From a virus, in the IMG/VR virus record IMGVR_UViG_3300045125_000073, positions 24,258 to 88,257 of that record: a stretch of 64,000 bases of DNA; one strand, given 5' to 3'. The translations under genes were made by a program, and so were the position numbers. Numbering within the stretch: position 1 is the first letter of the stretch; each line of letters opens with the position of its first letter. Positions 1 through 22,854 of the stretch are shown here, piece by piece. The notes beneath the pieces are model-generated. The model made no database searches, had not been told where the DNA came from, and was given only the letters and a program-made list of their open reading frames with translations.

Positions 1-479
1 TCCATACAGGTCCTGGTCTACCAGTTGTAGCTATATCGTAAGCTTTATTCAGTTCATATAATATATCATTTTTATCTTTAATCATAACAGCATACTTTGT
101 CATTGTTTTTGCTGTTGATATAATATTAAATTCTTGATCACCTATTTGTCTACAACCAGTGCCCTCGGATGTTTGTGATAATGATACTTGACCGATATAA
201 AAATAATAGGAACGCTATCCAACCAAGCACCCAAAACCCCCGTGAGAGTGTTTGTTCCTCCTGGTCCTGTTGTTACAACACAAGCACCAACGTCTTGTTT
301 TAATCTTAGCATAACCTTCAGCAGCCATTGCTGCTGCTTGTTCGTAGAGAAATATACTTTAGTGTTTTTGCTTTTCCTAATGAATCTCATCAAGTGAATA
401 CAACCACCACCAGAAACAGTAAAAACATGATTTATATTTTTGATTCCAAAAACTCTACTACAATATCAGATACTTTCAT
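1..479 (-). CDS. Thiamine pyrophosphate-binding protein (acetolactate synthase-like/YerE-like), N-terminal part; runs off the window; frameshifted
   Basis: Start MKVSDIVVEFLESKNINHVFTVSGGGCIHL at 479 and GACVVTTGPGGTNTLTGVLGAWLDSVPIIFIS match the TPP-enzyme N-terminal (pyrimidine-binding) domain. Confidence 0.85.
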
Positions 480-863
480 GGGTAAACTTTTTTAAATCAC
501 TTAGTGCTTGATTCCAATTTTGGAATTGAATTGCTTTATCATCAATATAACAAATACATCTAGGTTTTTCTGCTGTTATATCTTTTATGTATTCATTTAA
601 TTCATACTTTTTAACCATTCCCATATCAATTCTGGTCCTGTTTTTCCGTTTATAAGTGGTCTATCTTTCTTTGCTTTAGCTGTGTAGATTACTATATGAT
701 ACTTTTTTGAAAGTTTTTTTATCGCGTCAATAGAACCCTCAATAGGACTTCCATATATTGTCCCATCGTGATAACCTAACTCAAAACTATGGATAACTCC
801 ATCAAAATCTATAGCTATAGTTTTTGCTTCTTCTTCTTCAATTTTTTTCTTGTATTCATTCAT
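466..863 (-). CDS. HAD-superfamily hydrolase (cap-less); frameshifted near 600
   Basis: Motif I IAIDFDGVIH; C-terminal KPRCICYIDDKAIQF in another frame. Confidence 0.75.
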
Positions 864-1657
864 GGTTTATGGATTGATTTATTCTATCTTGAATCATTTG
901 GATGCGTTTAATATCTTGAGACGCAAGAGTAGTATAATATTCGTGTTTACACTTAAGCCATTCATATTCAAACATTTGGCCTTTTGAAAGGGCTCTTGGT
1001 AGATTTTTTAAAGCAACTGATGGATCGTATATTGCATAACGTGTTTCAAATTTATCAAGTAAACCTTCAGAGTGAAGTTTCTTTAAGAAAGAAAGAGAAT
1101 CTGTAGAAACAGCTCCACCCAAACACAATTTTAATCCTTTTTCTTTAACTTTAACAAATACTTTACGCACTAATGAATATATCTCATCGCTATTGACATA
1201 TGTTCTATCTTTCTCCATAGAAGAAACCAGATCTACTCGACCAACAGTAACTCCATATAAACTGTCAACTTCAACTATGTTCAGCATCTTTTCGATGTTG
1301 TTTACTGCGGTTATTGTTTCTACATTTATATTTAAGTGTATAGAACTTAAAGAATCATTTGGAATATGTGTTTTGGCTGATTGGATAAACTTTTAAGACC
1401 AAATTCAGACTCTACCATAGGAGCCACTAATCCCTTGACTCCTATGATCAAAGAATCTTTATAATATCTCTAATCGCCTCTGGACCACCTATTTTAAGTG
1501 TCAGTTTAGTTTTAGCTTGATTACAAATTTCTTTTAGGCGAACAGTTTCATTAAATAATGCTCCCTCATCTTCAAAAGAAGTTTTAATACCAATAAGACC
1601 TTCATTTTCAATGAGATCAGTTAAAATTTTAACGCATTTAAATTCTCTGGTGTTCAT
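856..1657 (-). CDS. HpcH/HpaI aldolase / citrate-lyase-like protein; frameshifted
   Basis: ORFs 1448-1657 (GIKTSFEDEG...LKIGGPEAIRD) and 856-1287 (GVTVGRVDLVSSM...LCLGGAVS) join into one ~265-aa protein; family recognised from motifs only. Confidence 0.6.
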
Positions 1658-1660
1658 GGT

Positions 1661-2325
1661 TTATTTTTTTGTTATTATTGCTGTAGCATATGCATTTTGA
1701 ACATCGACATAGATTTCTATGCCAGATATATTATTTTCTAAGTACTCTTTTCATCGAGGCAACAGGTGCTCGGATTCTATTTTACCTGTTTCTTTAAGTT
1801 TGTATATTAAATTATAAGTCTCATCGTTTCTAATACAACAAACTGGCTGATTTGGAATCGACATATCTTCTAAAATATAATAACCACCAGATTTAACATA
1901 TTTAAAAAGCTGGCCCAAAGATATGATTTGATGGTGATGTTCATGTGAACCGTCTTCTAATATAAAATCAAATTGTGTATTACCAAATGTTTTATACATA
2001 TTTTGTAAATCTATTCTATTACCTTGGTCGCCTTGAAAGAATTTTATCCTTTCATTGTTTTTTATAACAGGATGAGTTGACATATCTTTGATATCAAACG
2101 TGTAAATATACGCTGCATCAAAGTAATCTTTCCACATATTTACAGACTGACCACCATCAGAATATTCCATTTTTATTCCAATTTCTAACATTCGAATGGG
2201 TTCTTTCTCCATTTTGTTAAAAGTACATCATAAATTGGAGCATATCCGTGACGAGATGCGTTTGGAAATTCAGTTCCTTTATCCGTACCGTATAAATTTG
2301 CTAATTGATCTAATGTTTGTTTCAT
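1661..2325 (-). CDS. Class I SAM-dependent O-methyltransferase (MycE/ElmMI-like sugar methyltransferase); frameshifted
   Basis: N-terminal LYGTDKG...HGYAPIYD, motif I IRMLEIGI, and FDFILEDGSH. Confidence 0.75.
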
Positions 2326-2332
2326 TGTTATT

Positions 2333-3280
2333 TTACCATATAAAATTATTTTTATAATACTCTACTACATCCCTTAAAGCCATCTTAAAGTTTATTTCGG
2401 GATTCCATCCTAATCTTTTAAGTTTATCATCATTCAAAGAATATCGCAAATCTTGTCCAACTCTAGAACAAGACATATCAACATAATCATTTACATCAAA
2501 AGTATCAGTATTTTTTATGATTGATATAATGTCTTTAACGGTTTGTATATTTGATTGTTCAAAGTCACCAGAAATGTTGTATATCTCATTTTTAACACCA
2601 CTCTCAATAATTTTTATTATTGCATTCGCGGTGTCTTGTGCGTGTAACCGTTCTAATTGAGTTCCATTGTTGTGTAGGGGTATTTTTCTATTTAGATTAA
2701 AATACTTACATACTTTTGGAATTAATTTTTCTGTGTATTGACCAATTCCGTAGTTGTTTGTGGGTCTAACAATAACGTATGGAACTTTATGAGTTCGTGC
2801 CCATGCTAGTATTAACATGTCTGCTGCAGCTTTAGTTGCTGCATATGGGTTTGATGGTTTTAATATATCGGCTTCAGTGTGAGCACCTTCAACAATGTCA
2901 CCATAAACTTCGTCTGTACTAAAATGTAATAGAGTAGGTACTGCTGTATTTTTGTCTATAGTTTTTTATTAACTTTAAAATATTATGAACACCGTTTATA
3001 TTGGAATAAATAAAATCATCACTATTAGCTATGGAATTACCTACATGAGTTTCAGCAGCCGTATTGATAATATAATCGCAATCATATAAAAATTTAAGGT
3101 CATTTATATCACAATGAACAAATGAAAATTTTCGTATTGATTAAATTCTTTTAATAAATCGTCATTTGCTGCGTATGTTATTTTATCTACACCTTTTACA
3201 TACCAGCCTTTTTTTAAACAAAGTCGTGTTATATAAGAGCCTATAAATCCTAAACACCCTGTTACATATACTATTTTCAT
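2333..3280 (-). CDS. rfbB: dTDP-glucose 4,6-dehydratase (RmlB/RfbB type); frameshifted
   Basis: VTGCLGFIGS Rossmann motif, AAETHVGNSI, HFSTDEVYG, PSNPYAATKAAAD, RPTNNYGIGQYTEKLIP. Confidence 0.88.
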
Positions 3281-3281
3281 T

Positions 3282-4013
3282 TTATCTGCTCCAAAAAGTT
3301 GGTTCTCCTATAATTCTGGGTGCACAGTATTTATTTCTCAGAAGTTTGTGTTTGTATTTTATTATCAAGTTGTAATATTGTTTTAGTGCACATTCGTAGA
3401 TATATGCATGAAAATTATCAGTATAATTATACCAATAATCGTCTATTGCATTGTAAAAATTTGTTTTAGTTTCTAGCTGTTCTTCTGATCCAGCAGTCCA
3501 TATATCAAAAATATACGGATATTTCCCGTCGTATGCTGTTTTGGGTATCAATAAATTTGATGAATTTAATTCATTTATATCTAATTTAGAAAGATAATTT
3601 ATATCTAATCTAGTAGAAAAATACTTATCATATTTTTCATATTGTCTGGCCATTTCAAAAGCCTTTAAACTACTTTCTAACATATTTTTTACACCCAAAT
3701 GAGAATTTGGTATATGTTTATTGTATCTTGACTTTAAATAGTCTGTTCCCCTATCTGTTTCCACTATTATGTGTTTTGGATTATATGATTTTTTAATCCC
3801 TTCAAAATCTATAGTTTTTGAAGACTTTTCTTCAAGGACCCCTTGTGTTTGATCTTCCCATCCATTCCAGTGTGAACCGCTTTTAGCATTAATTCTATCC
3901 CAGGTGTGTATAAAAATATCACCCGGAGCAACAGAATAAACATTATCAAAAAAATTTTGATAACATTGTTCCCATGTTCTGGAATGGCCGTGAAAGATAT
4001 AGGCTATTTTCAT
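3282..4013 (-). CDS. Hypothetical protein typical of glycan clusters (GT-like)
   Basis: Intact 243-aa ORF, MKIAYIFHGHSRT...DIFIHTWD...STRLD; context within the sugar cluster. Confidence 0.55.
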   Translation of the reverse strand: MKIAYIFHGHSRTWEQCYQNFFDNVYSVAPGDIFIHTWDRINAKSGSHWNGWEDQTQGVLEEKSSKTIDFEGIKKSYNPKHIIVETDRGTDYLKSRYNKHIPNSHLGVKNMLESSLKAFEMARQYEKYDKYFSTRLDINYLSKLDINELNSSNLLIPKTAYDGKYPYIFDIWTAGSEEQLETKTNFYNAIDDYWYNYTDNFHAYIYECALKQYYNLIIKYKHKLLRNKYCAPRIIGEPTFWSR

Positions 4014-4883
4014 TAAGTATTCTCATAATATCACTATTTTTATAAAAGTCAACTAATTTATGTATAATAGTTTCAACAGAAAATTTATTTGTATAACCAT
4101 AAGACTTAACTTTTTTATATCCAAATAAGAATGTCTAACCTGGACTATATTGTGAAATTGTGTTGGTTGGATGTCTATTATCTTAGAACTAGAGCCCGAA
4201 TAATCTATGGCCTTTTGTATGAGATCTCCAAACATGAACGGCTCACCACTGCCTATATTAATGATCTCATTTACTGGAGCATGATCTATACAGTGTTTTA
4301 TTGCAGTACATACATCATCAACGTAAATATAATCTCTTAAAACTTTACCACCATAATAAAGTTCTACATCTTTATTTTCAGTTATTTGTTTTATAAGATA
4401 TTGTAGAGCATTTTTCTTTTTAGAGATTTTTAGATCACCTTCTCCCAATACATTAGCTAGTCTAAAAATTCTATATTTTATATTGAATGTTTGGCAAAAA
4501 GATATCAGTAATTGCTCTGCACAATATTTGGTTATAGAATAAAATCCTGTAGGATTGCATTTAGAATAGTCTTCTCTAAATGGAATTTCATTATTTTGGC
4601 CGTACACAAACCAAGAGCTAACAAAATTAAAAACTATATCTTCATTTTTAGGAATGTTTTCTAAAACATTCATTAGCACTTTTAAATTGGTGTCTATGTC
4701 TATATGTAAATTTTGATGGATATTATAATTATCAACTGTACTTATTAAGTACAAAATATTATTAGTTTTTGGTTTATAATCTGTTTTATCTAACTTTATT
4801 ATTTGGTCGGAGTATAAATTACAAAATTTAGATCCTATAAATCCAGAACCACCAAACACTGATATTTTATCAATATTGCTCAT
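4010..4883 (-). CDS. NAD-dependent epimerase/dehydratase (extended SDR)
   Basis: VFGGSGFIGS, FVSSWFVYG, catalytic YSITK, RDYIYVDDV; C-terminus probably frameshifted. Confidence 0.85.
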
Positions 4884-5720
4884 ATTTTATCCCATGGTGC
4901 TTAAACCAGTTATTTACATCTAGTAAATGATACTTATAATCTTGTTTTAATTTATTATATTCCAATTCTAATAGTTCGTAGCTTATGATGGACCAATCAT
5001 CAATTAAAATCATAGGAAAATTTTTAGCATAATATGTATTCATCGCAGATGTTTCTACTACAGGAATCGCACCAAAATATAAAGATTCCCACACTCGATG
5101 TGTGTCTTTTCCGTTTCCTGGAGGACATATTATAAATTTATGAGTCTGTAAAGCTTTATAGTAATCACCAACATCATTATAAACCGTTTTAGTATTTAAT
5201 CGGTCTGATATTATTTGTTTTATTTTTGTTCTCTTCTTCTGGATTTGTTTCTATATTAAAATTAGAATAAAACAAATCCATCTCTATTATCTGTTATAGT
5301 AAATTGTTTTAGATGTTCGGTTTCAGATGCTTCAGATCTCCAAGGAGGAACTAAACCAATAGGCAACGGTGTCATTATCTCGTCTATTGTTTCTGCATTT
5401 TGTGCATACCATTTTTTTATATTTTTAGGTACTGGTGGTATATAACTAAATTTATTGTATCCACCATGAGTAGAGACCGAATGATCATTGTCCCCTGATA
5501 TTAAAATTATATCTGTTACATCAGAATTATTTAAATAATTAAAAAGGTTAGGAAGATATGTACTCCAGCAGTATATGGTACAACCATTAAAAATGTCTTT
5601 TCTTTTATTTGATTTTATATACGGAACACCATCATTACGAACAAAAACAACATCACATCTGTCAGCATAATTTCTAGCGTTTAGTGTTGTTTGTGGTATT
5701 GTTTTTACATGAGTAAACAT
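4870..5720 (-). CDS. Exostosin (GT47)-like glycosyltransferase; frameshifted
   Basis: C-terminal THKFIICPPGNGKDTHRVWESLYFGAIPVV, the exostosin-type motif; N-terminal part is ORF 5262-5720. Confidence 0.6.
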
Positions 5721-6391
5721 TTATACAGATTCTAACAGTTTTAATTTATCTTGAAATTGTTGATAAAAACCATCATGATCGCACATATTTTTTGATCTCC
5801 TCTACCATGAAATCCAAAACAATTATTTAAGTCAAAATCACATTCTGGTATTCTAGATTCTAATGAAAATCTCATAGCAACTTCAACAGGAGCAAATTTA
5901 CAACCGTGCTGTTCTAGGGCATTTTTATAACGAAGACATATTGTTCCGTCTTCATGCCCCTGTGAATCCATATAACGACAAAGATTAATTAATTTTTTAC
6001 TTCTTAAACTGAACCCACCATTACCTACACGATTAATTTGACCATAATTTTTCCATGGCGCACCGATATAATCGTATTCTAAAAATCCATCATCCCATAA
6101 ATGAGGATTTATAACAAATCCATCATCGTGAATAGTAAGACAATACTCTGTGTCAACGTACTTATACAGTTCGTGTAACATAAATTGACTATAGGTATCG
6201 TGTGTTAGTTTTGGTATTTCTTGATAAATTATATCATCCGGCACATTAACTGGTTTGATGTGTGATAATAGCATATTTTTTGCAAAATCTATATGCTTAG
6301 TACTATATTTTATAGCTTTTAATCCTATATCAGGATTTACACCATCAATACAAATTAAAGTTATATTTTTTAATTGTATCTTATTGCTCAT
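5721..6391 (-). CDS. DUF5672-family protein (putative glycosyltransferase)
   Basis: YCLTIHDDGFVINPHLWDDGFLEYDYIGAPW and VGNGGFSLRSKKL. Confidence 0.75.
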
Positions 6392-6406
6392 AGATATTTA
6401 CCAAAA

Positions 6407-7096
6407 CTATTTTTTAAGAACATCTATTCTATTTTTATTTGGTACTCCAGTAATATGAACAAGAAATGATTCTGGTGTCCACGGTTCTGGAGGATCTGGT
6501 CTACCATCCCATATACCTCTATACAATTCTTTACTAGGTATAGAATTTAAAAATCTGTGATCTAATATTTTAATTGTATCTCTACAGGGAGTTTGGAGCA
6601 TACATTATATTAAATGTAGTTTGTTCTTCTCCCCAGTGATTGTTATCAATAACATATTTTCCAACAGAAAAAATGTAGTTATTAGTTCTTTAGTTCTGTC
6701 AGTATTTTTTAAAATAAAATTTCCAGTACTAAATGAATGTTTTCCGGGCCAATCCCAAGATACAAATAAAGAGTAGCGTTCGTTTGTGATGTCTTCTATT
6801 TTATATTCTGGGTTTGTTATTAACGCATCTCCGTCAATCCACATTACTGTATCGTAATATGATAACATATCAAAACATCTTAATGCACGTAGAATTCCTA
6901 GATTTGTTGATTTAAATATGTTGTTTCTATCTTCTCCCAAAGATTTTAAACATAATAAATCATACCCATGTTTTTTTGCGTATCTTTGTTGAGACGGATA
7001 CGTTAAATCGTGTACTTCTTCATAAGTATTATCTAAATCAGAAGAAGTTTTTAAACAATCTGTAGTACCAGTTATTAGTAGAATTTTATTTTTCAT
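6407..7096 (-). CDS. GT34/MNN10-like glycosyltransferase; frameshifted
   Basis: YAKKHGYDL, DxD-type WIDGDALITN, FSTGNFILKN; C-terminal FLVHITG. Confidence 0.65.
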
Positions 7097-8412
7097 TTTT
7101 TATTTTTAAAAAAATCATCGGTTATTTGTTCGATATAATCTAGTTGCTCTCCAGTGATTACTGGACTAGTTCCTAAAAAGAAAGTATCTGTTGTTACTTT
7201 TCTAGCATTAGGATACTTTGTAATGACTTCTTGTGGGTTCATCATTCCAGAATACGCTGGTTGTAACATGATGTTGCCAGCAAAGTATGGTCTTGTTTGA
7301 ATCTTATTGCTTTCAAAATGATCCACAATATCTTTTCGTTTAAAAGGAGCTCCGTCTTTAATAGTTATTGCAAAAGCAAACCAAGCTGGTTCTGCGCCTT
7401 CTGTTGCCTTTGGAAGTATTAGATAGTTTTCATATTTAGAGAATATCTGTGTAAGGCGTGCATGATTGGCGTTACGCATCTCAATAATCTTTGGTAGCTT
7501 CTTTATTTGTGCAAGCCCCATAGCTGCTTGCGAATCTGTTGGCTTAAGATTATAACCAATTTCATCGTACACATACTTGTGATCAAAGATCTCGTCAGGC
7601 AAAGCTGGAAGCCAGTTAGAAAAACGTGTCTTACACATACCATTCTTCAAAAGATTAGCTTTTTGACCAACACAATAGCAGCCACGGCCCCATTCTCTAA
7701 AACTTCGCACTACCTTTTCTTGATGCGGAGTATTACATGCTATAAAACCACCTTCGCCCATGGTAATATGGTGAGCAGGATAAAATGAAAAACTAGCAAA
7801 TTCTCCAAAACTTCCTAATGGTTTTCCTTTATAAGTAGAACCCAAAGCATCACAACAATCTTCTAGAAGAATAAGGCCGTATTCATTAATGATTTCCATT
7901 AAACGATCCATGTTTGGAGGATTGCCTAATACGTGAGCGAAGGTAATAACTTTACAACCTTCTTTAGCTCGCTGTTCTACTTGATCTAGATTAAGATTTA
8001 GTGTATCTAGATCTATATCAACAAATACCGGCTCAAATCCCACCTGAAAAATAGGATTAATAGTTGTTGGAAATCCTGCGATAGGAGTAATTACCTTTGT
8101 GCCTTTAGGAAAATTAGTAAGGCGTTTAGATGTAAGAGCTGACATCATTAGCAGATTTGAGCTACTACCACTATTAGTCAGAATACCAAAATTTTTATCA
8201 ACTAAACGAGGAAAGATCTGTTCAAAACGGATGCCGTTTTCTCCAAGAACTAACCACCCCTCTAGTATAGTTTTAATAGATTCGGTATACTCTTCGGTAT
8301 CAAAATACGGTCCAGCGTATTGAACCCAATCTTTACCAGCCACCCATTTTTTTGCTGCGTGTTTTTCGTTTATAAATTGTTCTACTTGTTTTAAAATATT
8401 TTCCATACTCAT
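7093..8412 (-). CDS. rfbH: NDP-4-keto-6-deoxyglucose 3-dehydrase (E1, RfbH/DdhC family)
   Basis: Intact 439 aa. SFYPAHHITMGEGG has His in place of the aminotransferase Lys; WGRGCYC...C Cys cluster; DHKYVYDEIGYNLK. Confidence 0.93.
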   Translation of the reverse strand: MSMENILKQVEQFINEKHAAKKWVAGKDWVQYAGPYFDTEEYTESIKTILEGWLVLGENGIRFEQIFPRLVDKNFGILTNSGSSSNLLMMSALTSKRLTNFPKGTKVITPIAGFPTTINPIFQVGFEPVFVDIDLDTLNLNLDQVEQRAKEGCKVITFAHVLGNPPNMDRLMEIINEYGLILLEDCCDALGSTYKGKPLGSFGEFASFSFYPAHHITMGEGGFIACNTPHQEKVVRSFREWGRGCYCVGQKANLLKNGMCKTRFSNWLPALPDEIFDHKYVYDEIGYNLKPTDSQAAMGLAQIKKLPKIIEMRNANHARLTQIFSKYENYLILPKATEGAEPAWFAFAITIKDGAPFKRKDIVDHFESNKIQTRPYFAGNIMLQPAYSGMMNPQEVITKYPNARKVTTDTFFLGTSPVITGEQLDYIEQITDDFFKNKK

Positions 8413-8413
8413 A

Positions 8414-9247
8414 TTAATGAATTCCCATTCCCCAATCGTTTAGATTGGGAATATTATATTCTTTAATCATTTGTTTAATATACTGATACTTATAATTATC
8501 ACTGATATTTTGCCGACTGTAAATTAAAGGATCTACTTTTAAAGGAAAAGAAATTTCTGCGTATTCCCAATTAAAATTATTTACAGACGCATCATAAGCA
8601 GAAGCTGAAACAGTTTCTGCATTAAATTTTATTCGATTTACATAGTCTGTAATTTTCCAATAATATTGTTTTATAGCTACTGCTTTTTTATCTAACCATT
8701 GAAGATGTGCTATAAAAAGATTTGGTGCTTGAATTACCGCTTGATTTTTTGGAACTGGTAGATGTTCAGAGTGCATCTGGGCAGATTTAAAAGATATCTT
8801 ATTTTCATAAGAACCAATTCTATCTTTTAGATTATGTCTCCATGGACCGTCTATTCTTATTTTATTTTTATCTGTGTATTGGATCCATTGTGCATGGATT
8901 AATGTATCTTTGTTTTGCTCTAGAATTGACTCTAATTGATCTTTGTTTAAGTTTCCATCTAGATATTCATCCGCATCTAAACAGATAATATGACCAGAAT
9001 GTTTAAAAGCTTCATCAAATAATCTTTGTCGTATATTTGATTCTACAGATAATTCGTTTTGATTTTTATTTGTTCTAAGAACATTTAAAATATTATATTT
9101 TTCTTTATTCTCTAATAAAAATTCATAGGTTCCATCTGTGGAGTCATCATCCATAAAAATAAAACCATCAGCATATGTTTGCCAATGTGGAATCATTTCT
9201 TTTAAAAGAAATAATTCATTTTTAATTAAAGTAATTTGAATGATCAT
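8414..9247 (-). CDS. GT2-like glycosyltransferase
   Basis: Intact 277 aa; IKNELFLLKE, FMDDDSTDGT, CLDADE (GT-A DxD). Confidence 0.7.
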   Translation of the reverse strand: MIIQITLIKNELFLLKEMIPHWQTYADGFIFMDDDSTDGTYEFLLENKEKYNILNVLRTNKNQNELSVESNIRQRLFDEAFKHSGHIICLDADEYLDGNLNKDQLESILEQNKDTLIHAQWIQYTDKNKIRIDGPWRHNLKDRIGSYENKISFKSAQMHSEHLPVPKNQAVIQAPNLFIAHLQWLDKKAVAIKQYYWKITDYVNRIKFNAETVSASAYDASVNNFNWEYAEISFPLKVDPLIYSRQNISDNYKYQYIKQMIKEYNIPNLNDWGMGIH

Positions 9248-9251
9248 AATA

Positions 9252-10084
9252 TTAACAGCTCAGTATTCTATTTAGGAGAGGTTCGCAATATTTTTTAGCT
9301 GTTTCAAAATTAAAATTAATTTTTTCTATATTAGAATAATAATAGTCTTCAGTATAATTTGTTATAAGAATGTTCTCTGGATTTATCCAGTAACTGGTAT
9401 CAAAATATTCTGATACGTTCGGACAACCCCAATATATGGGAATTGTTTTTGTTATTAAACAATCTATTAATTTTTCTGTAAAATAATTAGGTTCGTTTGA
9501 ACTTTCGATAACTACAGAATACATCGAATTAAAAGATGTATTTTGTTATCATTTGGAAGTGTTGGTGTGTTTGGTATAGGAAATCGTGTGGACGAATAAA
9601 AGTTTAATTTTGTTTTAATTTTGTTTTTATTATTCCAAATAGTATGGCGGATGTTGTATCCTGGTTTCCCTGTCAGGGATCCGCACACCATACTAATACT
9701 ATTTTCTTTTACAAGCTTACCTAAATCTTCAGTAAATGTTCCAATAGAGTCTGGGTGATGTGATGATTTATTTAACCATGTGGTTCCGTATGGCTGTTTT
9801 ACCGCATGAGAACACTTCTCTAAAATTTTAGGATTAGAAGTTATAATTTTAGTGTAATAGTGCTGATTAGTAATAACATGATCTGCTTGCTCTACCCAAG
9901 CAGATGTTGTTGGTTCATTAATATTAACGAATATTTTATGTTTTGCATCAGAATAAAATTGTACCGGTCCCCCTGGTCTAGAATTTTTACCAAATCTGGT
10001 AAAATGAATTTCATATGATTCTGGCAGATCAGGTAAAGACTCTGGTGATATAAGATAATCAGCGTTAAGAACAAGCGGTTTCAT
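9252..10084 (-). CDS. GT10 (fucosyltransferase)-like protein; frameshifted
   Basis: C-terminal YSVVIESSNEPNYFTEKLIDCLITKTIPIYWGCPN matches the GT10 signature. Confidence 0.7.
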
Positions 10085-10944
10085 TTTATAATTTTATCAA
10101 ATAAATATTCGTCTGCTAGTTTTAGATCCTTAACAGCATTAAAATTATTTGTGATTGCTGTTAATTTTGAATCGTATACTTGTTTTGATAAACTTTGTAA
10201 TATCTCAGACTCTTTATTTTGTTCTAAAAATATTATACCATCTGGATCAAAAAAGTCAAAAATCTTTTTTGTTCCACAATAAACTGGAACTGTGCCTGTT
10301 GCAAAACAGTCTGTTATTTTTTCTGTCCAGTACGAATCGTAAATACCATTTTCAATAACTATACTAAACATGTACTCTTTGATACCATTTAATTTAGTAT
10401 TCCATGGATTTCTTGGATCTGTTACTGTTCTCTGAGTACCGTGTGCTCCACCAAATACATCTAGATCAGCATCCAAAGCAAGTCTAGCAATCTGATGTCT
10501 GTATACATGTCCTTCTGTTGCTAATTTAGGAGAACAAAACATAGAACATAATTTTGTTTTTTCGTATATTGCCCAGTCTTGTTTTGGAACCCACGGGTAA
10601 TTACTACCACTTGGGCAAAATATAAAATTAGAATTTAATTCTAATAACGATTGGTCGCAAGTAAAAATTTTATTATAATAATTATTAAATAGTATTTTAT
10701 GATTGTGGATTAAAAAATTATAAACATCTGGTACTATGAATCGAGACTCACAAACCCACCCGTATCTTTTTTCTTTAGGAATAGAAAGATCTGGTTGATA
10801 CATCATACCACGATCTATGTGTACATCCCAATCTCCCTTTTCTGAAGACCAAGTAAAATTTGTTGGGGTTATATTTGAACAGGACGAATAGTTTGTGTCA
10901 AAAGGAGCACCTATTGCTCTTACTTTGTGCCCGGGCTTTGCCAT
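10081..10944 (-). CDS. GT10 (fucosyltransferase)-like protein
   Basis: Intact 287 aa; YMFSIVIENGIYDSYWTEKITDCFATGTVPVYCG. Confidence 0.75.
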   Translation of the reverse strand: MAKPGHKVRAIGAPFDTNYSSCSNITPTNFTWSSEKGDWDVHIDRGMMYQPDLSIPKEKRYGWVCESRFIVPDVYNFLIHNHKILFNNYYNKIFTCDQSLLELNSNFIFCPSGSNYPWVPKQDWAIYEKTKLCSMFCSPKLATEGHVYRHQIARLALDADLDVFGGAHGTQRTVTDPRNPWNTKLNGIKEYMFSIVIENGIYDSYWTEKITDCFATGTVPVYCGTKKIFDFFDPDGIIFLEQNKESEILQSLSKQVYDSKLTAITNNFNAVKDLKLADEYLFDKIIK

Positions 10945-11556
10945 TCTATTAAATCCTCACTCATTCCTAGATTCTTTAATGCTTGTTTCTTTGAATCAAC
11001 ATCAGCCAGCCCCATCACAATATAACTGTTTTCGTTGCCATCTCCGGGCCATACACAATATTCTGGGCCTAAAATTTCATAACAAAACCATCTTTTTGAT
11101 AAAAACTATGAAGAATTCCAACAAGAGCTTCATGATCAAACCACTGTCCACTTGCTGCCATTTTTCTAGCTAAAAATGTCCAATGCTGTAAAAATTCTAA
11201 TGATTTTGAATTAAATGCAAAATATATGGGAGAAGCTTTTGCTGCATGTAATTTATTCATAGAGCATGCTACCGCTAAATCAGTATTGCCCTCAAACAAA
11301 TCAAAAACATGTAGTTGTTTTCTTACGTCTGAATCTATATCTAGCCAAACAACAGGCTTCTGTTTTTCTATTAATAATTTGTAAATAAATTGTGGTTTGC
11401 TTAAACAGTTTTGTTGATACGAACCCAATGATGTTTTTCTCGTATATCGTATGGTACACGAAGAGCATCTAACTGTTGCTTTAAACGTTTTGCGTGATCG
11501 CTATAGTACGTTTTTCCGTCTATATCACTATAAAAAGAAATCACTTCAGTTTTCAT
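10920..11556 (-). CDS. Putative GT-A nucleotide-diphospho-sugar transferase; frameshifted
   Basis: MKTEVISFYSD...CLSKPQFIYKLL...VVWLDIDSDV...WFDHEAL. Confidence 0.6.
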
Positions 11557-11558
11557 GG

Positions 11559-11963
11559 TTAAGAGTTTCCTATATGATATTTAGGCACAAGTTGCCAGTC
11601 TTTCTTTTCTTTATGCGGAATAATTTTTAGTTGAGCTAAAGAAATAATAGGAGAAGTGTATTCTTCTGAATCTACAGCCTCTACTAGCCCCCATTCCACG
11701 AGAAGTTTTACAATCATGTTACGATCGACCCAGATCTGTATCATCTATATCTGTTTCAAGACCATCCAGATCTAACATTTCTTTAAAGTGCATAATAGCG
11801 TATCGTCCACGCTTGTGGAGGATGTGGCAACTTTGATACAGCTTTTTTCTTTCTTAGACGATACACCCATTCGGGTAAGAGTCTCTTTAACCTTGAGGAA
11901 ATCGTCTTTAGTTTTTAGCCGAACTTCCACTCCAAGGCCATCAAAAATATCTTCGGGTTCCAT
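11559..11963 (-). CDS. regA: Translational repressor RegA; frameshifted
   Basis: DDFLKVKETLTRMGVSSKKEKKLYQSCHILHKRGRYAIMHFKE...RRNMIVKLLVEWGL...KEKKDWQLVPKYHIG; follows gp62. Confidence 0.93.
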
Positions 11964-12001: not shown

Positions 12002-12397
12002 TTATTTAGGAATTTTAGTATTTGTGCCACCCTGATCCAATAGGTCAGAAATTACTTTCCAATCTTGTTCGGAAATCAAATCCATAACCTGTTTGGCCTT
12101 GGTATGAGAATAACCGTATAGTGTCTTTAATGCGTCTATACGATCATTAGACTCGTCCTTGATCCATTTACTGAACCGTTTACGAGCTCGGGCAGACACC
12201 CGAAGAAAGTCGTACTGAAGCTTTTTACCCAGACCTGGTAGACGATTCATTTCGTTTGCCAGAAAGATGGTATCAGAAAAGTACGAAAGACCGCGATTAG
12301 CTAGAAACGGATTGTACTCCCGTTCACACCCGGGATCTTCGTCCATAAGTGGAATTTTTGTTTGATTTATGGAATTTAAAAAGTCAAACGGATTCAT
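12002..12397 (-). CDS. gp62: Clamp loader small subunit
   Basis: MNPFDFLNSIN...YNPFLANRGLSYFSDTIFLANEMN...RKRFSKWIK. Confidence 0.92.
   Translation of the reverse strand: MNPFDFLNSINQTKIPLMDEDPGCEREYNPFLANRGLSYFSDTIFLANEMNRLPGLGKKLQYDFLRVSARARKRFSKWIKDESNDRIDALKTLYGYSHTKAKQVMDLISEQDWKVISDLLDQGGTNTKIPK
12003..12009 (-). promoter_or_regulatory. Late-promoter-like motif (CTAAATA) before regA and the glycan island
   Basis: Overlaps the gp62 stop; same motif as before gp3. Confidence 0.4.
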
Positions 12398-12959
12398 TAT
12401 AATTTCCTAGCAGCCCAAGACATTTCAAATCCGCCCATAATCAGTTCATTTGGTTTATTAGCAAAAAATTCATCCACTGCCTTTATTACTCCCGGCCAAC
12501 CATGAGAGTAATCGTGGCCGCAGAAATATCCACCACTTTTTACTTTAGGATACCACAACTCTAAATCTTCTTTAACGGCTTCATATTCATGAGCAGCATC
12601 AATAAAAATTCCATCTATACTATTGTCTGCAAACAATTGAGACGCTTCTTTAGAAGTCATTTGTAAAGCTTTGAATTTGTCTCCAACTGGAGCTAAATTT
12701 TTTTAAATTCTTCAAACAAAGTATCATTGATAACTGCTGTCTCGTTTTTATGCTCGTCACTACCTTTCCAAGTATCAACCGCATAAATATTAAAATTTTT
12801 ATTGTTATTAATTGTTTCTACAATAAAATACGATAAACTTTTTCCCTTCCATACCCCAACCTCAACAAATACTCCATTTTCGGGTAGTACTTCTACTAAT
12901 TTAGTATACAATTGGGGAAAAGTAAACCACCCTTCTAAATTTTCATAAAAATGTTTCAT
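12397..12959 (-). CDS. Class I SAM-dependent methyltransferase (Methyltransf_24-like); frameshifted
   Basis: FVEVGVWKGKS, IDGIFIDAAHEYEAVKEDLELWYPKVKSGGYFCGHDY. Confidence 0.85.
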
Positions 12960-12975
12960 AATGTATTATTCCTTA

Positions 12976-12983
12976 AATTTATA
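12976..12983 (-). promoter_or_regulatory. Late-promoter-like motif (TATAAATT) before the inserted methyltransferase
   Basis: One mismatch to TATAAATA, followed by an AAGGA RBS. Confidence 0.4.
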
Positions 12984-12985
12984 AA

Positions 12986-13947
12986 TTATTCTTTAAACTC
13001 GCAGTTCATCATCAGTTCCACCATAAACGCACACAGATTAATCTCTTGATCGGCCACAAACGCAGCTCTTGTATTGGTACTCGCCAATAACCACAACCGC
13101 CTGAGGAATGCTCTTGGGGTCTAGATGCTCGTATAAGCCATCGTAGACCTTCCTAAACACGTCCTGAGGGCTGTTGTCTAGATTGTTGGCTACCCATTTA
13201 CGAATCTCTGTAAAGTTCTTGGTCTTGAGGAACCCCATCAGCTCCTTGATATTGAGTTCTCCAGCCGTACTAAGAATTCCGATATCAATAACTCCAGCAG
13301 CAGAGTACCGTTGGAGTTCATTCAGAGTACGACGAAAATCTGGAAAATATTTGACCACGACCTTGGACAGTACCTTGAGATCATACTTCAATACCTTCTT
13401 CGTCCAGAATACCTTGGCAACGAGTTAGGAACTGTTTTGCCAGTTCGGGGCGTTCCTTGGCCGGGAAGTTAAAATCAATAACTGTGCAACGAGAATGAAT
13501 AGGCTCAATGATACGGTTCTTGTAGTTACAGGTCAAGATAAACCGACACGTCTTGGCAAACTCTTCAATAGCTCCTCGAAGGGCAGGCTGAATGCTCTGG
13601 GCGTTGGAGTAATCAAACTCGTCCAGAATAACAATCTTTTGCTTGGCTCCTTCTGACAAAGACACCGTACTGGCAAACTGCCTGATCTTGGTTCGTAGAG
13701 TATCAATATTACCGTCTTCAGAACAGTTGATCAGGATGTAGTCTGCACCTAGTTGAGTACACAGAGCCTTGAGCCACGGTAGTCTTGCCCATACCGGGCT
13801 TACCTGCTAGGAGCAGATTAGGACATTCCCCAGATTCTACGATAGCATTAAACGTATCCTTGAGATCTTGGGAAGAACGCAGTGATCAATGAGTGCAGGA
13901 CGGTACTTCTCTACAAGAAGACCGATAGAATCGTTTGCGGTTAGCAT
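12986..13947 (-). CDS. gp44: Clamp loader large subunit (AAA+); frameshifted
   Basis: LVEKYRP, PGMGKTT, KQKIVILDEFDY, CRFILTCNYKNRIIEPIHSRC, YFPDFRRTLNELQRYS. Confidence 0.95.
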
Positions 13948-13948
13948 A

Positions 13949-14636
13949 TTATCCCTTGTAGGTGCTGCTGGCATCCATAGCCACCCAATACGTCAGCGGA
14001 CGACTGGCGTGTGTAAACTGACCAATTACGCTCTTGGAAAGAGCAACACGGTAATCACCGTCTAGCATCTTCATGTTTTCCATCTTGAAGTTAAACGAAA
14101 ACTCTGCTTCGTTCTTGTTTTCACCAACCTCAATAGAAAACACGTTACAAGTTGGATCCTTGAGATCACGAACCACGGCCATAACACTTTTCATTATCGG
14201 ATACAAAACACAAATCCGGATTGCCCAGAACTGCTGCTGCTCGTTGAAGTTCCTTGAAGTCATCCGCAGTAAGATCAAACTCCACTGCTGATTCGATCTT
14301 CTTAATGCTCTTGGTTGGATACGAAAGAAGCTTGGGATCAGAGTAGTAGTACTTCACTGTGGAACCACGAGTGCCAGTGATTGTCATGTATTTGTCTTCA
14401 AACGTAAACTCCGGTTCTTGAAATAGAGAAATTACACCAAGAAGCTTGTTAAGATCCCAGATACCAAATTCGGTGTCAAAAGATTCTTCAACTTCCACCT
14501 CTGCCATAATATTCTTGGTAGGAGACATTGTTGTAATCTTCGACCCGGCCTTTACGTACAGATTAGAATTAATACCACTGAAATTCTTGAGAATGTTCAG
14601 GGTGTCCTTAGAGATTGTTGTTGCCGCTTTAGTCAT
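13949..14636 (-). CDS. gp45: Sliding clamp; frameshifted
   Basis: ISKDTLNILKNFSGINSNL...EFGIWDLNKLLG...FNFKMENMKMLDGDYRVALS...LTYWVAM. Confidence 0.93.
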
Positions 14637-16766: not shown

Positions 16767-18493
16767 ACAATTCTACTGAAGTTCTTTTTCTTGTCAAATT
16801 GAACAACGTGATTGAATCTATCTAGTAGTTGGTCCGTCTTATGGCTGATCACATAAACGTTTGCACGAGCACCAAAACTAGACAGCAGTTTCATCAGCTC
16901 ATCCACTCCACCACTGTCCAAACTGGAATCAAATACTTCATCCAGAATAAGCAGATTAGTATTGACACTGTTCTTCAACTTTGCGATCTCTCGCCATGTC
17001 AGAAGCAGTGCCAGATCGATCCTCATCTTCTCGCCTTCGCTAAACGATTCGTAACAGAACTCGTCACGATGGCGGCTCTTGATAACTTCATTAAACTCCT
17101 CGTCTAGATGAAAATTTGCGTAGAAGTCCATGTTGTTCAGATACTTGTTCACGTACTTGTTGATTAGTGGAATATAATATTTCACAATCTTAGCTTTGAT
17201 TCCACTGTCCTTGAACAGGAATACCAGTTTATCATAAGAACGAAGCGTGTCAAGTGCTTTTTGTTTTTTTCTAAAAGTTTTCCTTGTTTAGACAGCAGAT
17301 CAGAAAGACGATCTTGTGCTTCTTGAATTTTAGCTTGAGTATCTGCAGTTTCTACAACAGTCAGCATCTCTTGATCCAAACGTTCATTAAGTTTGATCAG
17401 AGACTCCATGGTTTGTTCTTTTAGCAGAAGCTTTGATAATTAAGTCATTAAGTTTATTCTGAACAGACGTGACTCTTGTTCAGATTATTTTTAGACATAT
17501 TGATGGCTTCTTTTATACGGTCCAACGAGCGACGGTGTTCTTGGGCCTTCTCAGACTTTTCTGAGATTACTGTCTCTTTGTGTTCTTTGCTGATGGTCTG
17601 CTTACAAGTTGGGCAACTGTGGTTTTTCTCGAAAAACTGGATGTCTGTCTTGTACGCTTTCAATGGTGTTCTCAAGTTTAAACAACACAATCTGCTGCTT
17701 CTTGAGTTCCGCATTAATCTGATCTCCTGGTTCAATTTCCGTCTCTAGTTCTTTCATGGACTTTTGAAGAGTTTTAATTTCTTTAGACAACCCCTTAATT
17801 GTCTCGGTGTTTTCTTCCAGAGTCTTTTTACGATCCGCCACACGATCTGAGGTATTGCGCTGGTACGACTCTAACTACCTCTTTGGTTGCATGATACTTT
17901 CTCATTTACCAATAATAGCTCAGACTCTACAGCTTGCAGGTTGCCTTTGGCAGTGCCTATTTTGGTTTTCAGAACGCCATTCATCTCTGAGAAAATACCA
18001 ATGTCTAGAATATTCTCAATAACAAGACGGCGATCTGCAGGTGTTAACTGCATAAATGGAATAAACGAAGACGAACCTAACACAACCACCTGAGAGAATG
18101 TCTTGTGGTTCATGCCCACAATTTGTTCTTCTAGAATCTTCTGGTAGTCTTTACTCTTAGCGTCTTCGTTTACTAGTTCATCGTCTTTATAGATTTTAAA
18201 TACTTTGGGTGATAGACCACGAACGACTTTATATTCTGTTTTTCCAATACTAAATTCTAGTTCAACAACACAGTTTTTCTTGTTGATGCTGTTTACCAGT
18301 TGAGGAATGTTCATGTTACGGAACGGTTTTCCGAACAGCGCAAAGCTAGATAGAGTCTAGAAACGCAAACGATTTACCGTTGCCATTAGAACCGCACACA
18401 AGAGTTGTGTTGTTTTTATTCAAGTTAATTTCAGTAAATGTATTACCGAAAGAACCAAAGTTTTTAAAACGAACCAGTCTTGAATGTTATCAC
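16763..18493 (-). CDS. gp46: Recombination exonuclease ATPase subunit (SbcC/Rad50-like); multiple frameshifts
   Basis: FKNFGSFGN, Walker A GSNGNGKS, CPTCKQ hook, FSEGEKMRIDLALL, LLILDEVFDSSLD. Confidence 0.95.
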
Positions 18494-19534
18494 TCTAAAC
18501 TCTCCATATAAATTTCACGAACAATATTCTTTAACTCTTCTTTATTGTCCGATTCCATACCATCGATCTCTCGGTTAATTGAGGTTGAGAGTATCATCAG
18601 TAATATCCAATTCTGGTTCGTCTCCAGCCCTTTTCACTAAGATCTTCAATAATACTAACACTGGCTGGTTCCACAGCATACAACGAATCCAGGAACTGGT
18701 CAAATTTTATTTCACTCTTTTTTTCGTAAACTATTACCTTTACGTAAGTTCCTTTATATTTGAGCCGGATCAAAATCCTGAATTAGTGTACCGTTTCTCC
18801 ATTCAATATTGTGAAATATTTTCATTTGTATTTTGTATAAACTGTAGTTCTCGGGTTTCTGTGTCTAAAATATGAAACCCTTTGGTTTCATTTGTGTCTA
18901 CAATGGTCATCTGATATTGGGTGCCTGTGTAATGCACATTTCCTTTGGAACTCTTTCTTGTGAAAATGGCCGGACAGCACCAGATCAAATTTCTCTAGGA
19001 ACTTGTCGTCCATGCCCTCACCAAACTTTACACCAGGCATTACTTCGTATCCAGTTAATTCCAAATGGCCTGCAAGAATGGTTGCTTTAGATATCAGCAA
19101 TCTTTTGCATAAATGGTTTTTGATTTTCTTCGTTGATCCACGGTACTAGTCAAAATAGACGCACCATTAAAACACACTTCTGTGACATCTTCGTATAGAT
19201 GAAATGATGGATGGCATCCACCAAGAACTTCTTTGGGAGAATTCAGGCGATTGGTATTCTTGTAAAACACATCGTGATTACCAAGAATGCAGTGAAGCTC
19301 CACGCCATTCTTATCAAACCATTCAATAAACCGCTTCTTGGTGTGGTGAAGTGTATTAAAGTTAATAAACTTACGCCTGTCAAACAGATCACCCAGATGA
19401 AGAACTTTGGTAATTCCATGCTCTTTGAGATACGGAAAAAACTGGTCTTCAAAGAACTTTAAGAAATGATTTAAAAACAGTGGAGAATCTCCACGTGCCC
19501 CAAAATGGGTGTCACTAATTACTGCAATTTTCAT
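18490..19534 (-). CDS. gp47: Recombination exonuclease nuclease subunit (SbcD/Mre11-like); frameshifted
   Basis: MKIAVISDTHFGAR, VLHLGDLFDRRK, ILGNHDVFYKN, VLSGHFH. Confidence 0.95.
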
Positions 19535-20124
19535 GATTTCTTGACGACGCTTTTTGCGTTTCTTTGGTTCATACTTTTCAATATCACGTTCAGAAATGCT
19601 AAAATGTTCGGTTAATGCTTCTCGTTCATTTGATTTATCAAAATAATTTTCTTTAAACCACTTGTGTAGTGTACCATCATCCATGTTTTCTGTCAACTTA
19701 AATTTTATATATGCTTGTTTTTTTCGCGTTCTATTCGTCGTAAGAAATGCGTAATATATTATTTGAGTAAAATATGAAAATGGATTTTTTGATTTTCTTG
19801 GATTAAAGTTATGAGCGTACATCAAGCAGTTTTCTATTCCGTCACCAATCATTTCATCCTTGTACGGATAATTCATAAAATTAGATTTAGAACATAATCG
19901 TTCTGCTATTTTTAAAAACAACTTCCAATATATTCTAGAAACAGGAGGTCGTTCATCACCACTATCTTCTGCTTCGCGTATTTCTTTTTTCCATTTAATC
20001 ATTTCTGTCTAAAAACTTGTTTGTTGTCAACGTAATGATCGTTATTTAATTCTTTTTCTACTATTTTTTCTATTTTTTCTTCTGTTATTTTTTTCTTAAC
20101 TTTTTTAGTTTTTCCACTTGACAT
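19531..20124 (-). CDS. gp55: Late-transcription sigma factor; frameshifted
   Basis: HYVDNK, FLKIAERL...NFMNYPYKDEMIGDGIENCLMYAHNFNPRKSKNPFSYFTQIIYYAFL; directly upstream of gp47. Confidence 0.92.
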
Positions 20125-20146
20125 CATGTAAAATTCCTGTTATAAT
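20118..20146 (+). promoter_or_regulatory. Perfect-consensus sigma70 promoter, antisense orientation, overlapping the gp55 start
   Basis: TTGACA (20118-20123), 17-nt spacer, TATAAT (20141-20146). Confidence 0.6.
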
Positions 20147-20174
20147 ATATTGTCTGAGTAAAAAAAGAATTAGA

Positions 20175-20876
20175 TTAACGGTAATCGTCTGAAGAAGGAT
20201 CGGCATTCCAATCCGTCCAGTCGTTACCTAGATTCTTTTTACCTTTCTTATTACCCGTAAACTTATTGGGATGCATTCCTTCACCATTTTCATTGGTGAT
20301 TTCATTTATCATTTCACCAAATTCTTTTCGACTCAGCAATCCTGAGCGAAGAAGTTCTACGATTACTTCTGGTGAAAATACCAAGTTCATAAACACCATT
20401 TTATCATCTTTTCGAGGTTTTGCAAGATTCTTTTAAGTTAGAATCTGTCTTCGGGCATATTCATCATTTCTTCTAACATTTTCTCTAAATTTTGTTGAAT
20501 GCATAGCGAATCATGTTCCGTAAAGAGGTGGAAGGGCTTCTTGTTGTATTTGGAGTATACAGGTCTGAGCTTTGGCAATTAAATTTATCTTCTTTTTTAA
20601 TTTCATTTTCGTATAAAAATGCTACATCTTTTGATGGTTCTAACAAGGTAGTAACAGAATCTTTAGAAATAATTGTCTGTCTATCAGAAGAAAGAATTAA
20701 CCAGTTTTTAAGCATAAACAGCTCTTTCATATTACCAAACAAATCATGAGAAACCATTGATTTTAAACACCATAGGACGATGTAATTTATAACTACCGTC
20801 TTCTGGTTCGTGGTAACACCAGCTAATCAGTTCTTCACCCGATTTCATTTTGATTATTTTGTATATGTTTTGTCAT
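20175..20876 (-). CDS. Hypothetical protein between uvsW and gp55; frameshifted
   Basis: IIKMKSGEELI...KLHRPMVFK...LKNWL; position typical of aquatic T4-like phages. Confidence 0.65.
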
Positions 20877-22379: not shown

Positions 22380-22826
22380 TACACTCCTTGGGTAAATTTA
22401 AGCCAATCTATGATTGAACGAATTTGCCATTGGCGATTGTTTACTATTTTAACAACATCTTCCAGATAATTAACCTTTTCTTGTTGAAAATTTACTTTTT
22501 CAGATGCTTTGATATAATCGTTAATCAGATTCAATCAGTCTGGTCTGCTTCAGTTTTTAAGAACGTTTAGTTCAAACGGTTCCCAACCGAACTGGTGATC
22601 AGCTCTTCTTTGCTCATGCGGCCTGTATAGTATAACCATTTATTTCGACGAAGTACAGACAGCTCACTTTCCATTCGTTTAAGCTTTAAGTTTTTCGTCC
22701 ATATACATAACCAGATATTTGTTATGAATTTGTGGAGTTCTGGACGATTCGGCGTCTAGAGCTGTTTGATCTATTTCTAGATCTTTTTTAATCATATTTT
22801 TTAATTCATCCAAGATTCATACTCAT
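22379..22826 (-). CDS. uvsY: Recombination mediator UvsY; frameshifted
   Basis: KKDLEIDQTALDAESSRTPQIHNKYL...WLYYTG...NNRQWQIRSIIDWLKFTQG; between gp3 and uvsW. Confidence 0.85.
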
Positions 22827-22854
22827 ATTATACACTAAATTTAAGGAGTTTCAA
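22827..22854 (-). promoter_or_regulatory. Sigma70-like promoter upstream of uvsY-uvsW
   Basis: TTGAAA-N16-TATAAT immediately upstream of the uvsY start. Confidence 0.5.

Follow-up and report, generated by a model that had tools for sequence, protein, structure and literature searches.

A stretch of 64,000 nucleotides from an uncultured virus (IMG/VR record IMGVR_UViG_3300045125_000073) begins with a long run of co-oriented genes for the synthesis and transfer of sugars, lying directly behind the gene for the translational repressor regA of a T4-like phage. We tentatively interpret this run as a lineage-conserved locus that would make a branched dideoxyhexose and glycosylate a structural protein of the phage, such as a fibre, hub or capsid-decoration protein. 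The interpretation draws on a predicted donor pathway with bacterial precedents, on a set of putatively soluble glycosyltransferases, and on the conservation of the arrangement among related phages. The stretch, referred to below as the window, covers bases 24258-88257 of an 88,811-bp contig that CheckV estimates to be ~46% complete. Positions are those of the window unless marked as contig positions, and gene families were assigned by Pfam and NCBIfam profile searches with curated cut-offs.

A predicted pathway to a branched dideoxysugar

The donor half of the locus has its closest precedent in bacteria, where an aldolase, a thiamine diphosphate (ThDP) enzyme, a reductase, an S-adenosylmethionine (SAM) methyltransferase and the enzymes of 4-keto-3,6-dideoxy sugar synthesis together form the signature of acyl-branched 3,6-dideoxyhexoses (PMC9306805). 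In these pathways the hydroxy-keto acid comes from an aldolase, as with ErwI and MMAR_2331 of the aldolase/citrate-lyase family, and HpaI can form it as well; it is then joined to a nucleoside diphosphate (NDP)-4-keto-3,6-dideoxyhexose by a YerE-like enzyme, after which a YerF-like reductase acts. The R. palustris cluster includes an additional SAM methyltransferase (PMC9306805). The gene set of the window matches this signature, and it is from this match that we predict an NDP-activated acyl-branched 3,6-dideoxyhexose as the product, probably of the yersiniose/erwiniose/caryophyllose class. In the route that we propose, the RmlB-like 4,6-dehydratase would dehydrate NDP-glucose, RfbH, the E1-type 3-dehydrase, would 3-deoxygenate the sugar with electrons from a host reductase, and the YerE-like ThDP enzyme would attach an acyl branch at C-4. 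The branch would come from a hydroxy-keto acid made by the HpcH/HpaI-family aldolase or, in relatives, from a NeuB-like synthase instead; a short-chain dehydrogenase/reductase (SDR) would then reduce the branch, which the methyltransferase may methylate.

The 3-dehydrase scores above the curated equivalog threshold of RfbH (NF011936, 468.8 against 423 bits), aligns over its full length to Yersinia E1 (3BCX, E 2e-102), and keeps both the histidine that replaces the pyridoxal phosphate (PLP) lysine and all four Fe-S cysteines. The cysteines are spaced C-X57-C-X1-C, followed by 12 residues to the last cysteine where Yersinia E1 has 7, a 5-residue insertion. The 4,6-dehydratase is matched by the dTDP (deoxythymidine diphosphate)-glucose-type model TIGR01181 at 278.8 bits, under its equivalog cut-off of 365, and by the CDP (cytidine diphosphate)-glucose dehydratase model at only 63.7. 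For the ThDP enzyme, whose gene is cut by the edge of the window, an intact homologue in a relative (L006:14456-16192) carries the Pfam TPP N, M and C domains and keeps the ThDP motif GDG...NN, with invariant G443-D444-G445 and N470-N471. The best PDB match of this homologue is JanthE (8RPH; 319.6 bits, the best acetolactate synthase reaching 259.8), which is described as a YerE-like ThDP enzyme (PMC12188165), and the enzyme scores under every NCBIfam acetolactate synthase equivalog cut-off.

The cellular relatives of the ThDP enzyme keep similar company. The 80 cellular homologues nearest to it belong to many phyla, at 38-51% identity, and 50 of them have an RfbH homologue within 10 kb. A homologue of SDR2, the RmlD-like reductase encoded just outside the window, is present in 24 of these loci, often directly downstream of the ThDP gene; a NeuB-like gene is found in 18, often directly upstream, and a homologue of the phage aldolase in 13. 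In the phages, the two alternative cassettes, with the aldolase or with NeuB, would provide distinct branch donors.

Soluble glycosyltransferases of the locus

The transfer half comprises, by family assignment, at least eight putatively soluble transferases: two GT10-like enzymes, a GT2, a GT34-like, a GT47-like, a GT6-like and a PF03407-like GT-A enzyme, and a GT2-family protein with a tetratricopeptide repeat (TPR)-like domain (GT2-TPR). An initial annotation of the window, made from its letters alone, had counted about six transferase-like genes; those that it named are present, and the count has grown with a 243-aa GT6-like gene that it did not name and with GT2-TPR, which lies outside the window. 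These enzymes would build an oligosaccharide in the cytoplasm, and GT2-TPR, resembling SunS, ThuS and GmaR, would prime the glycan on its acceptor.

GT2-TPR bears most directly on the nature of that acceptor. It has an N-terminal GT-A domain, an invariant D-x-D-D motif and a C-terminal TPR-like helical domain, and belongs to a family that is very large in metagenomes (7,562 matches). Its profile finds GmaR (9e-15), SunS (2e-13) and ThuS (1e-9) in the PDB, and its predicted structure (predicted local distance difference test, pLDDT, 91) matches SunS/ThuS over the full length (E 1e-17, TM 0.6); the next structural matches, wall-teichoic-acid transferases at E 1e-7, follow ten orders of magnitude behind. 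SunS and ThuS glycosylate small bacteriocin peptides, and GmaR is the flagellin O-linked N-acetylglucosamine transferase of Listeria. The closest solved relatives are thus all protein or peptide glycosyltransferases, which suggests, by likeness only, an acceptor of this kind for the phage enzyme.

Two of the remaining transferases have no Pfam match. The AlphaFold model of the 243-aa protein has a GT-A fold (mean pLDDT 94.4), and its top Foldseek matches are BoGT6a (4AYL), alpha-1,3-galactosyltransferase and the ABO transferases (E 3e-7, TM ~0.5), making it a candidate for a newly recognised GT6-like GT-A glycosyltransferase. The GT-A candidate at 10923-11556 resembles, at 0.98 in Atlas language-model features, phage clusters that carry PF03407 and PF05637 (GT34). 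The GT47-like gene also matches Exostosin_GT47, at 29.6 bits under a cut-off of 33.4. For the DUF5672 protein, Atlas returned its own family only, in clusters that are 82-100% viral.

Conservation of the locus among uncultured relatives

With RfbH as the tblastn query, IMG/VR yielded 225 stretches coding for relatives, and the 80 that were kept are 74-95% identical. The order gp62-regA-GT-A-GT10a-GT10b-GT2-RfbH-GT34-DUF5672-SDR1-RmlB-TPP-SDR2-GT2-TPR recurs in the same orientation in 34 contigs, across which gp62 is 42-92% identical. The RmlB-like dehydratase is present in 71 of 80 viral loci and the GT2 gene (8414-9247) in 60, the GT-A candidate follows regA in 25 relatives, and GT10b is 86% identical to an intact copy at L006:5540-6370. 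RfbH is 94-95% identical to its closest relatives at the protein level while the surrounding DNA is ~78% identical, which indicates purifying selection. The locus is therefore conserved and syntenic across a whole uncultured lineage and is not a recently inserted island, so the word "island" in the initial annotation is an overstatement. The same 34 independent contigs span the junction with regA in the same order and show that it is real; the chimera with host DNA that the annotation had named as its own refutation is not what is found there.

Other parts of the locus behave as variable cassettes. Homologues of the GT47-like gene occur in only 5 of 80 loci, and the set of aldolase, methyltransferase and haloacid dehalogenase (HAD)-like genes in 6-11 (the aldolase in 11 viral loci), a NeuB-like synthase replacing this set in many relatives. 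In 6 relatives the HAD-like gene is the immediate upstream neighbour of the TPP gene; it has no significant Pfam match (best NIF, E 0.067). The methyltransferase is 35% identical to L006:16192-16947, which matches a PHROG methyltransferase family. A more distant phage, on the metagenome contig with P0040, has the same RmlB-NeuB-TPP-SDR module; near it lie a ribonucleotide reductase bearing an intein with LAGLIDADG and a RecA-like gene with homing-endonuclease domains.

Extent, integrity and phage context

The window contains 15 co-oriented glycan genes on the minus strand at 1-11556, directly after regA (Table 1), and all gene types that the initial annotation had listed for its block of at least 15 genes were recovered there with Pfam and NCBIfam. 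As it had also anticipated, the block runs past position 1: the remainder of the TPP gene, the RmlD-like SDR2 and GT2-TPR add 3.3 kb and carry it to contig position 20975, for a total of ~14.8 kb and ~17 genes. Donor synthesis and many transferases are combined in one block, again as proposed, and its AT-richness is borne out by a G+C content of 0.27-0.36, against mostly 0.35-0.49 in the following 15 kb. The locus sits between replication genes (gp44-gp62-regA) and fibre-like structural genes.

Table 1. Genes of the glycan locus and neighbouring features (window positions unless marked contig)
Feature	Position	Strand	Evidence or remark
YerE-like ThDP (TPP) carboligase, N-terminal part	1-465, onward to ~contig 23052	-	Pfam TPP_enzyme_N
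Small HAD-like phosphatase candidate, weak	469-863	-	DxDGV motif; 2 frame pieces
HpcH/HpaI-family class II pyruvate aldolase	859-1657	-	PF03328 31.9 bits (cut-off 25); 3 frame pieces
SAM-methyltransferase-like gene	1754-2325	-	Methyltransf_24/CmcI-like, sub-threshold, E 0.0015; 2 frame pieces
NDP-hexose 4,6-dehydratase (RmlB-like SDR)	2336-3280	-	TIGR01181 278.8 bits; 3 frame pieces
243-aa GT6-like GT-A-fold glycosyltransferase candidate	3282-4013	-	Predicted structure; intact
SDR1, NDP-sugar epimerase/reductase	4033-4883	-	Pfam Epimerase E 1e-31; C-terminal frameshift near 4107-4116
GT47/RXYLT1-like glycosyltransferase	4873-5720	-	RXYLT1_C 34.1 bits (cut-off 27); 3 frame pieces
DUF5672 protein	5741-6391	-	PF18922 E 3.5e-21
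GT34/DUF273-like GT-A glycosyltransferase	6410-7096	-	PF05637 33.2 (cut-off 23), PF03314 33.4 (cut-off 30); 2 frame pieces
RfbH/E1, NDP-4-keto-6-deoxyhexose 3-dehydrase	7093-8412	-	NF011936 468.8 bits (cut-off 423); intact
GT2-family glycosyltransferase	8414-9247	-	Glyco_tranf_2_4 39.2 bits (cut-off 27.5); intact
GT10-like glycosyltransferase b	9255-10084	-	Pfam GT10 E 0.0016, sub-threshold; 2 frame pieces
GT10-like (fucosyltransferase family) glycosyltransferase a	10081-10944	-	PF00852 34.2 bits (cut-off 23.9); intact
GT-A-type nucleotide-sugar transferase candidate, first after regA	10923-11556	-	Atlas features; 3 frame pieces
regA translational repressor, T4 core, block boundary	11562-11963	-	PF01818 E 1.4e-29; 3 frame pieces
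gp62 clamp-loader subunit, T4 core	12002-12397	-	85% identical to L006:3225-3617, which matches Phage_clamp_A
SDR2, RmlD-like	contig 22214-23005	-	Upstream of window
GT2-TPR glycosyltransferase	contig 20975-22221	-	Upstream of window; 3 frame pieces
fn3-repeat fibre-like protein	contig 17412-19848		Adjoins block
Pectate-lyase-like protein	contig 13314-13724		Beyond block
813-aa protein like tailspike/tail-fibre proteins of Streptomyces and Stenotrophomonas phages	contig 1538-3979		Beyond block

The assembly is riddled with insertions and deletions, and reading it at the protein level requires relatives or polishing. Of the 15 glycan genes in the window, 9 are broken into 2-3 frames (the frame change in SDR1 was detected by tblastn with its L006 homologue), which together with the low G+C content of the block relative to its flanks might be taken to mean that the genes are decayed or that the block is an artefact, either as pseudogenes or through a mis-join with host DNA. 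The core genes are equally broken, however, with gp23 in at least 4 pieces, gp44 in 3, gp45 in 2, rnh in 2 and regA in 3. The major capsid gene gp23 (23488-24641) shows internal stops, and the remaining 52 kb (11.5-64 kb) holds only 25 open reading frames (ORFs) of at least 120 aa. Because core genes are broken as often as glycan genes and all genes are intact in relatives, we attribute the frameshifts to assembly error and not to glycan-gene decay; with the junction also present in the 34 contigs described above, decay or artefact is very hard to credit.

Judged by its core genes (regA, gp62, gp44, gp45, rnh, gp46/47, gp55 and gp23), the phage is an uncultured aquatic T4-like myovirus, and the T4-like assignment of the initial annotation stands. 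Core proteins share only 45-69% identity with those of the nearest cultured phages, a mixed group infecting OM43, SAR11, Stenotrophomonas and marine cyanobacteria, and no GenBank phage has a capsid protein that is more than 69% identical. Searches of the block DNA by megablast and blastn against 50,697 GenBank phage records returned nothing, only core genes matching, at 64-72%. Neither the contig nor the complete 211.7-kb relative carries the photosynthesis gene psbA. As a separate observation, ~600 bases (12397-12990) separate gp44 (12989-13980) from gp62, the two genes being adjacent in L006.

With respect to expression, the late promoter TATAAATA has no match in the block, where chance alone would give only ~1 in 11.5 kb, and five in the structural part of the window. 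No terminator was found between regA and the block, and a sigma-70 promoter scan performed no better than shuffles.

Export machinery and candidate acceptors

No island protein has a polytopic membrane pattern, a single hydrophobic stretch in one TPP fragment being all that was seen. The same holds more widely: ORFs with at least 4 hydrophobic segments number 2 of 1696 in 82 viral loci, compared with 101 of 1798 around the cellular homologues, and none of the 82 viral loci contains a flippase, polymerase, ligase, initiating phosphoglycosyltransferase or Gtr-type membrane protein. The near-absence of polytopic ORFs indicates that the phages carry cytoplasmic chemistry only. Lacking such membrane components, the locus does not match a serotype-conversion module of the Gtr type or one dependent on Wzx/Wzy.

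The gene after GT2-TPR encodes a conserved 133-139-aa protein and is followed by fibre-like genes. Pieces at contig 19739-20967, upstream of GT2-TPR and including the conserved 133-139-aa protein, have no family match. In one intact relative (G001; L169:10269-12554), a 762-aa protein with five stretches of collagen triple-helix repeats lies two genes past GT2-TPR. Within the window, a structural (hub-like) gene encodes a mucin-like (PTTTP)n linker at 59961-60085 on the minus strand, made of 8.2 copies of a 15-bp unit, and is a plausible O-glycosylation acceptor. The gene also appears to hold poly-Gly and poly-Pro tracts and Cys-rich modules.

Target of the glycan

Where the glycan would be attached is the main point on which readings of the locus diverge. 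We lean, with some hesitation, toward a protein or the virion as the target because of the likeness of GT2-TPR to SunS, ThuS and GmaR, the lack of membrane machinery, the adjoining fibre genes and the (PTTTP)n linker. Several observations weigh against glycosylation of a structural protein with a branched dideoxyhexose. The dehydratase is dTDP-type by profile, while characterised E1 takes CDP sugars. Neither a nucleotidyltransferase (NTP_transferase) nor an E3-type reductase (Fer2) is encoded on the 88.8-kb contig, and Fer2 is also absent from the complete 211.7-kb relative. The E1 homologue SpnQ, which takes a TDP-sugar and relies on general cellular reductases, offers a precedent that makes a host-supplied reductase plausible. 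In the complete relative, G005, RmlD-like and RmlA-like genes (L165:590-3140), the latter for a nucleotidyltransferase, lie directly upstream of gp44; this second small sugar module sits inside the replication cluster, ~50 kb from the RfbH locus of that genome. Further points on the same side are the sub-threshold assignments of GT10b, the methyltransferase, the HAD-like gene and the Exostosin match, the frameshifts in this contig's own gene copies, and the lack of GT2-TPR in more distant relatives despite their having RfbH. In addition, the position of the block directly behind regA, with neither a terminator nor TATAAATA, fits early or middle rather than late expression, bearing in mind that only ~1 chance match would be expected, and known acyl-branched 3,6-dideoxyhexoses occur in lipopolysaccharide (LPS) and lipooligosaccharides, not on proteins (PMC9306805).

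These last two points favour instead a remodelling of the host surface, a possibility that we consider only somewhat less likely. Here the sugar would be added to undecaprenyl-linked intermediates of O-antigen, capsule or lipooligosaccharide, which the host would export, polymerise and ligate, and the altered envelope would block superinfection or the adsorption of progeny to infected cells and debris. Such remodelling is the standard published reading of clusters of this kind (PMC1079782, PMC7029224, PMC12801897), and the cellular ThDP/RfbH loci abound in polytopic membrane proteins of the kind that serves to export polysaccharides. It is harder to reconcile with 82 viral loci that lack export machinery, and the phage glycan would have to suit the export specificity of the host; moreover, GT2-TPR resembles protein glycosyltransferases only, and the locus is tied to fibre genes. 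Since small bacteriocin peptides are the substrates of its two best structural matches, SunS and ThuS, and all enzymes of the locus appear soluble, the acceptor of GT2-TPR and its partners might also be some other soluble molecule, such as a small secreted glycocin-like peptide, a host protein or a metabolite. We consider this improbable: neither a small Cys-containing precursor peptide nor an exporter was observed beside GT2-TPR, whose neighbours are the 133-139-aa protein and then fibre-like genes, and a bacteriocin is of no obvious use to a lytic T4-like phage. More improbable still is hypermodification of the phage genome with sugars on modified bases in T-even style, even though DNA glucosylation is classically a trait of T4-like phages and soluble transferases would suit it. 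The thymidylate-synthase/dCMP-hydroxymethylase family (PF00303) is absent from the contig, from three partial relatives and from the complete 211.7-kb relative; at least eight transferase families and a branched-sugar pathway go far beyond known DNA glycosylation systems, and the GT10, GT6-like, GT34, GT47-like and SunS-like families act on glycans or proteins. The initial annotation had likewise argued for a complex glycan over single-sugar glucosylation of DNA.

Returning to glycosylation of a phage structural protein, we speculate on a more specific course of events, which in its full detail is less likely than not, whereby the phage modifies its own fibre or hub proteins. GT2-TPR would prime the glycan, the fucosyltransferase-like and GT6-like enzymes would extend it, and the acyl-branched 3,6-dideoxyhexose would cap it, the exchange of aldolase for NeuB varying the length of the branch between strains. 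Candidate acceptors would be the (PTTTP)n linker, the fn3 or collagen-like fibres and the Cys-rich fibre modules.

The analysis provides two handles on the sugar clusters of marine T4-like phages, namely a predicted class of product and a transferase whose characterised relatives all modify proteins, and both are accessible through cloned enzymes without culture of a phage. If virion fibres are indeed glycosylated, the modification would affect host recognition, resistance to grazers and proteases, and the diversification of abundant phages. If the glycan there also bears the predicted branched dideoxyhexose, a rare sugar of the O-antigen type would be known from a phage particle for the first time, and the "LPS" clusters of marine T4-like phages would gain a function. 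The phage ThDP family is of practical interest as well, adding >100 new sequence clusters to the candidates among ThDP enzymes, which are of interest as tertiary-alcohol biocatalysts (PMC12188165).

Comparison with known systems

Marine T4-like cyanophages and pelagimyophages have been reported since 2005 to carry glycan or "LPS" clusters, located in their hypervariable or host-recognition regions (PMC1079782, PMC7029224, PMC12801897). Like the clusters of P-SSM2, S-SCSM1/S-SCSM2R and PMP, the locus described here is a long, AT-rich and variable run of soluble transferases and NDP-sugar enzymes beside tail-fibre genes in a T4-like genome. GT2, GT10 and GT11 families and NDP-sugar epimerases are common to both, and cyanophages S-B05, S-B43, S-H68 and RN05-S carry RfbH homologues (40% identity) beside fucosyltransferases. 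Unlike these clusters, the present one belongs to a lineage without a cultured member or psbA, is anchored directly behind regA, and combines a YerE-like ThDP enzyme, partnered by an aldolase or NeuB, with a SunS/GmaR-like GT2-TPR. The ThDP enzyme has no homologue above 31% identity in the 50,697 GenBank phage records, and PHROGs assigns no function to its family; GT2-TPR occurs in GenBank phages only at 28-36% identity, in Tunturi_5 and megaphages. A literature search found nothing linking yersiniose-type sugars to phage genes. Within the databases and literature searched, both the YerE-like branched-sugar module and the SunS/GmaR-like GT2-TPR thus appear to be new for phages.

The bacterial branched-sugar pathways include those for yersiniose A (DdhA-D, YerE, YerF), erwiniose (ErwE/F/I/J), caryophyllose (MMAR_2331/2332) and the C6-branched sugar of R. 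palustris (PMC9306805). The phage locus shares with them an E1-type 3-dehydrase, a 4,6-dehydratase, a YerE-like carboligase with an adjacent SDR, an HpcH/HpaI aldolase and a SAM methyltransferase. It differs in being carried by a lytic-type phage, with no nucleotidyltransferase or E3 on the fragment and no export machinery, and in having a dehydratase that is dTDP-type by profile and a 5-residue insertion in the Fe-S motif of E1. With the glycocin S-glycosyltransferases SunS and ThuS and with Listeria GmaR, its best matches in both sequence and structure, the phage GT2-TPR shares the combination of a GT-A and a TPR-like domain; identity is only 15-19%, however, and the gene belongs to a multi-transferase locus beside fibre genes instead of accompanying a precursor peptide or flagellin. 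Finally, virion glycosylation in mycobacteriophages (Freeman et al. 2023, as cited in PMC12801897) and giant viruses offers a parallel in which virus-encoded soluble cytoplasmic transferases are likewise encoded next to structural genes. Those systems have been shown experimentally, and the phages among them use one to few transferases; the putative enzyme set of the present locus is far larger and takes in a rare-sugar pathway.

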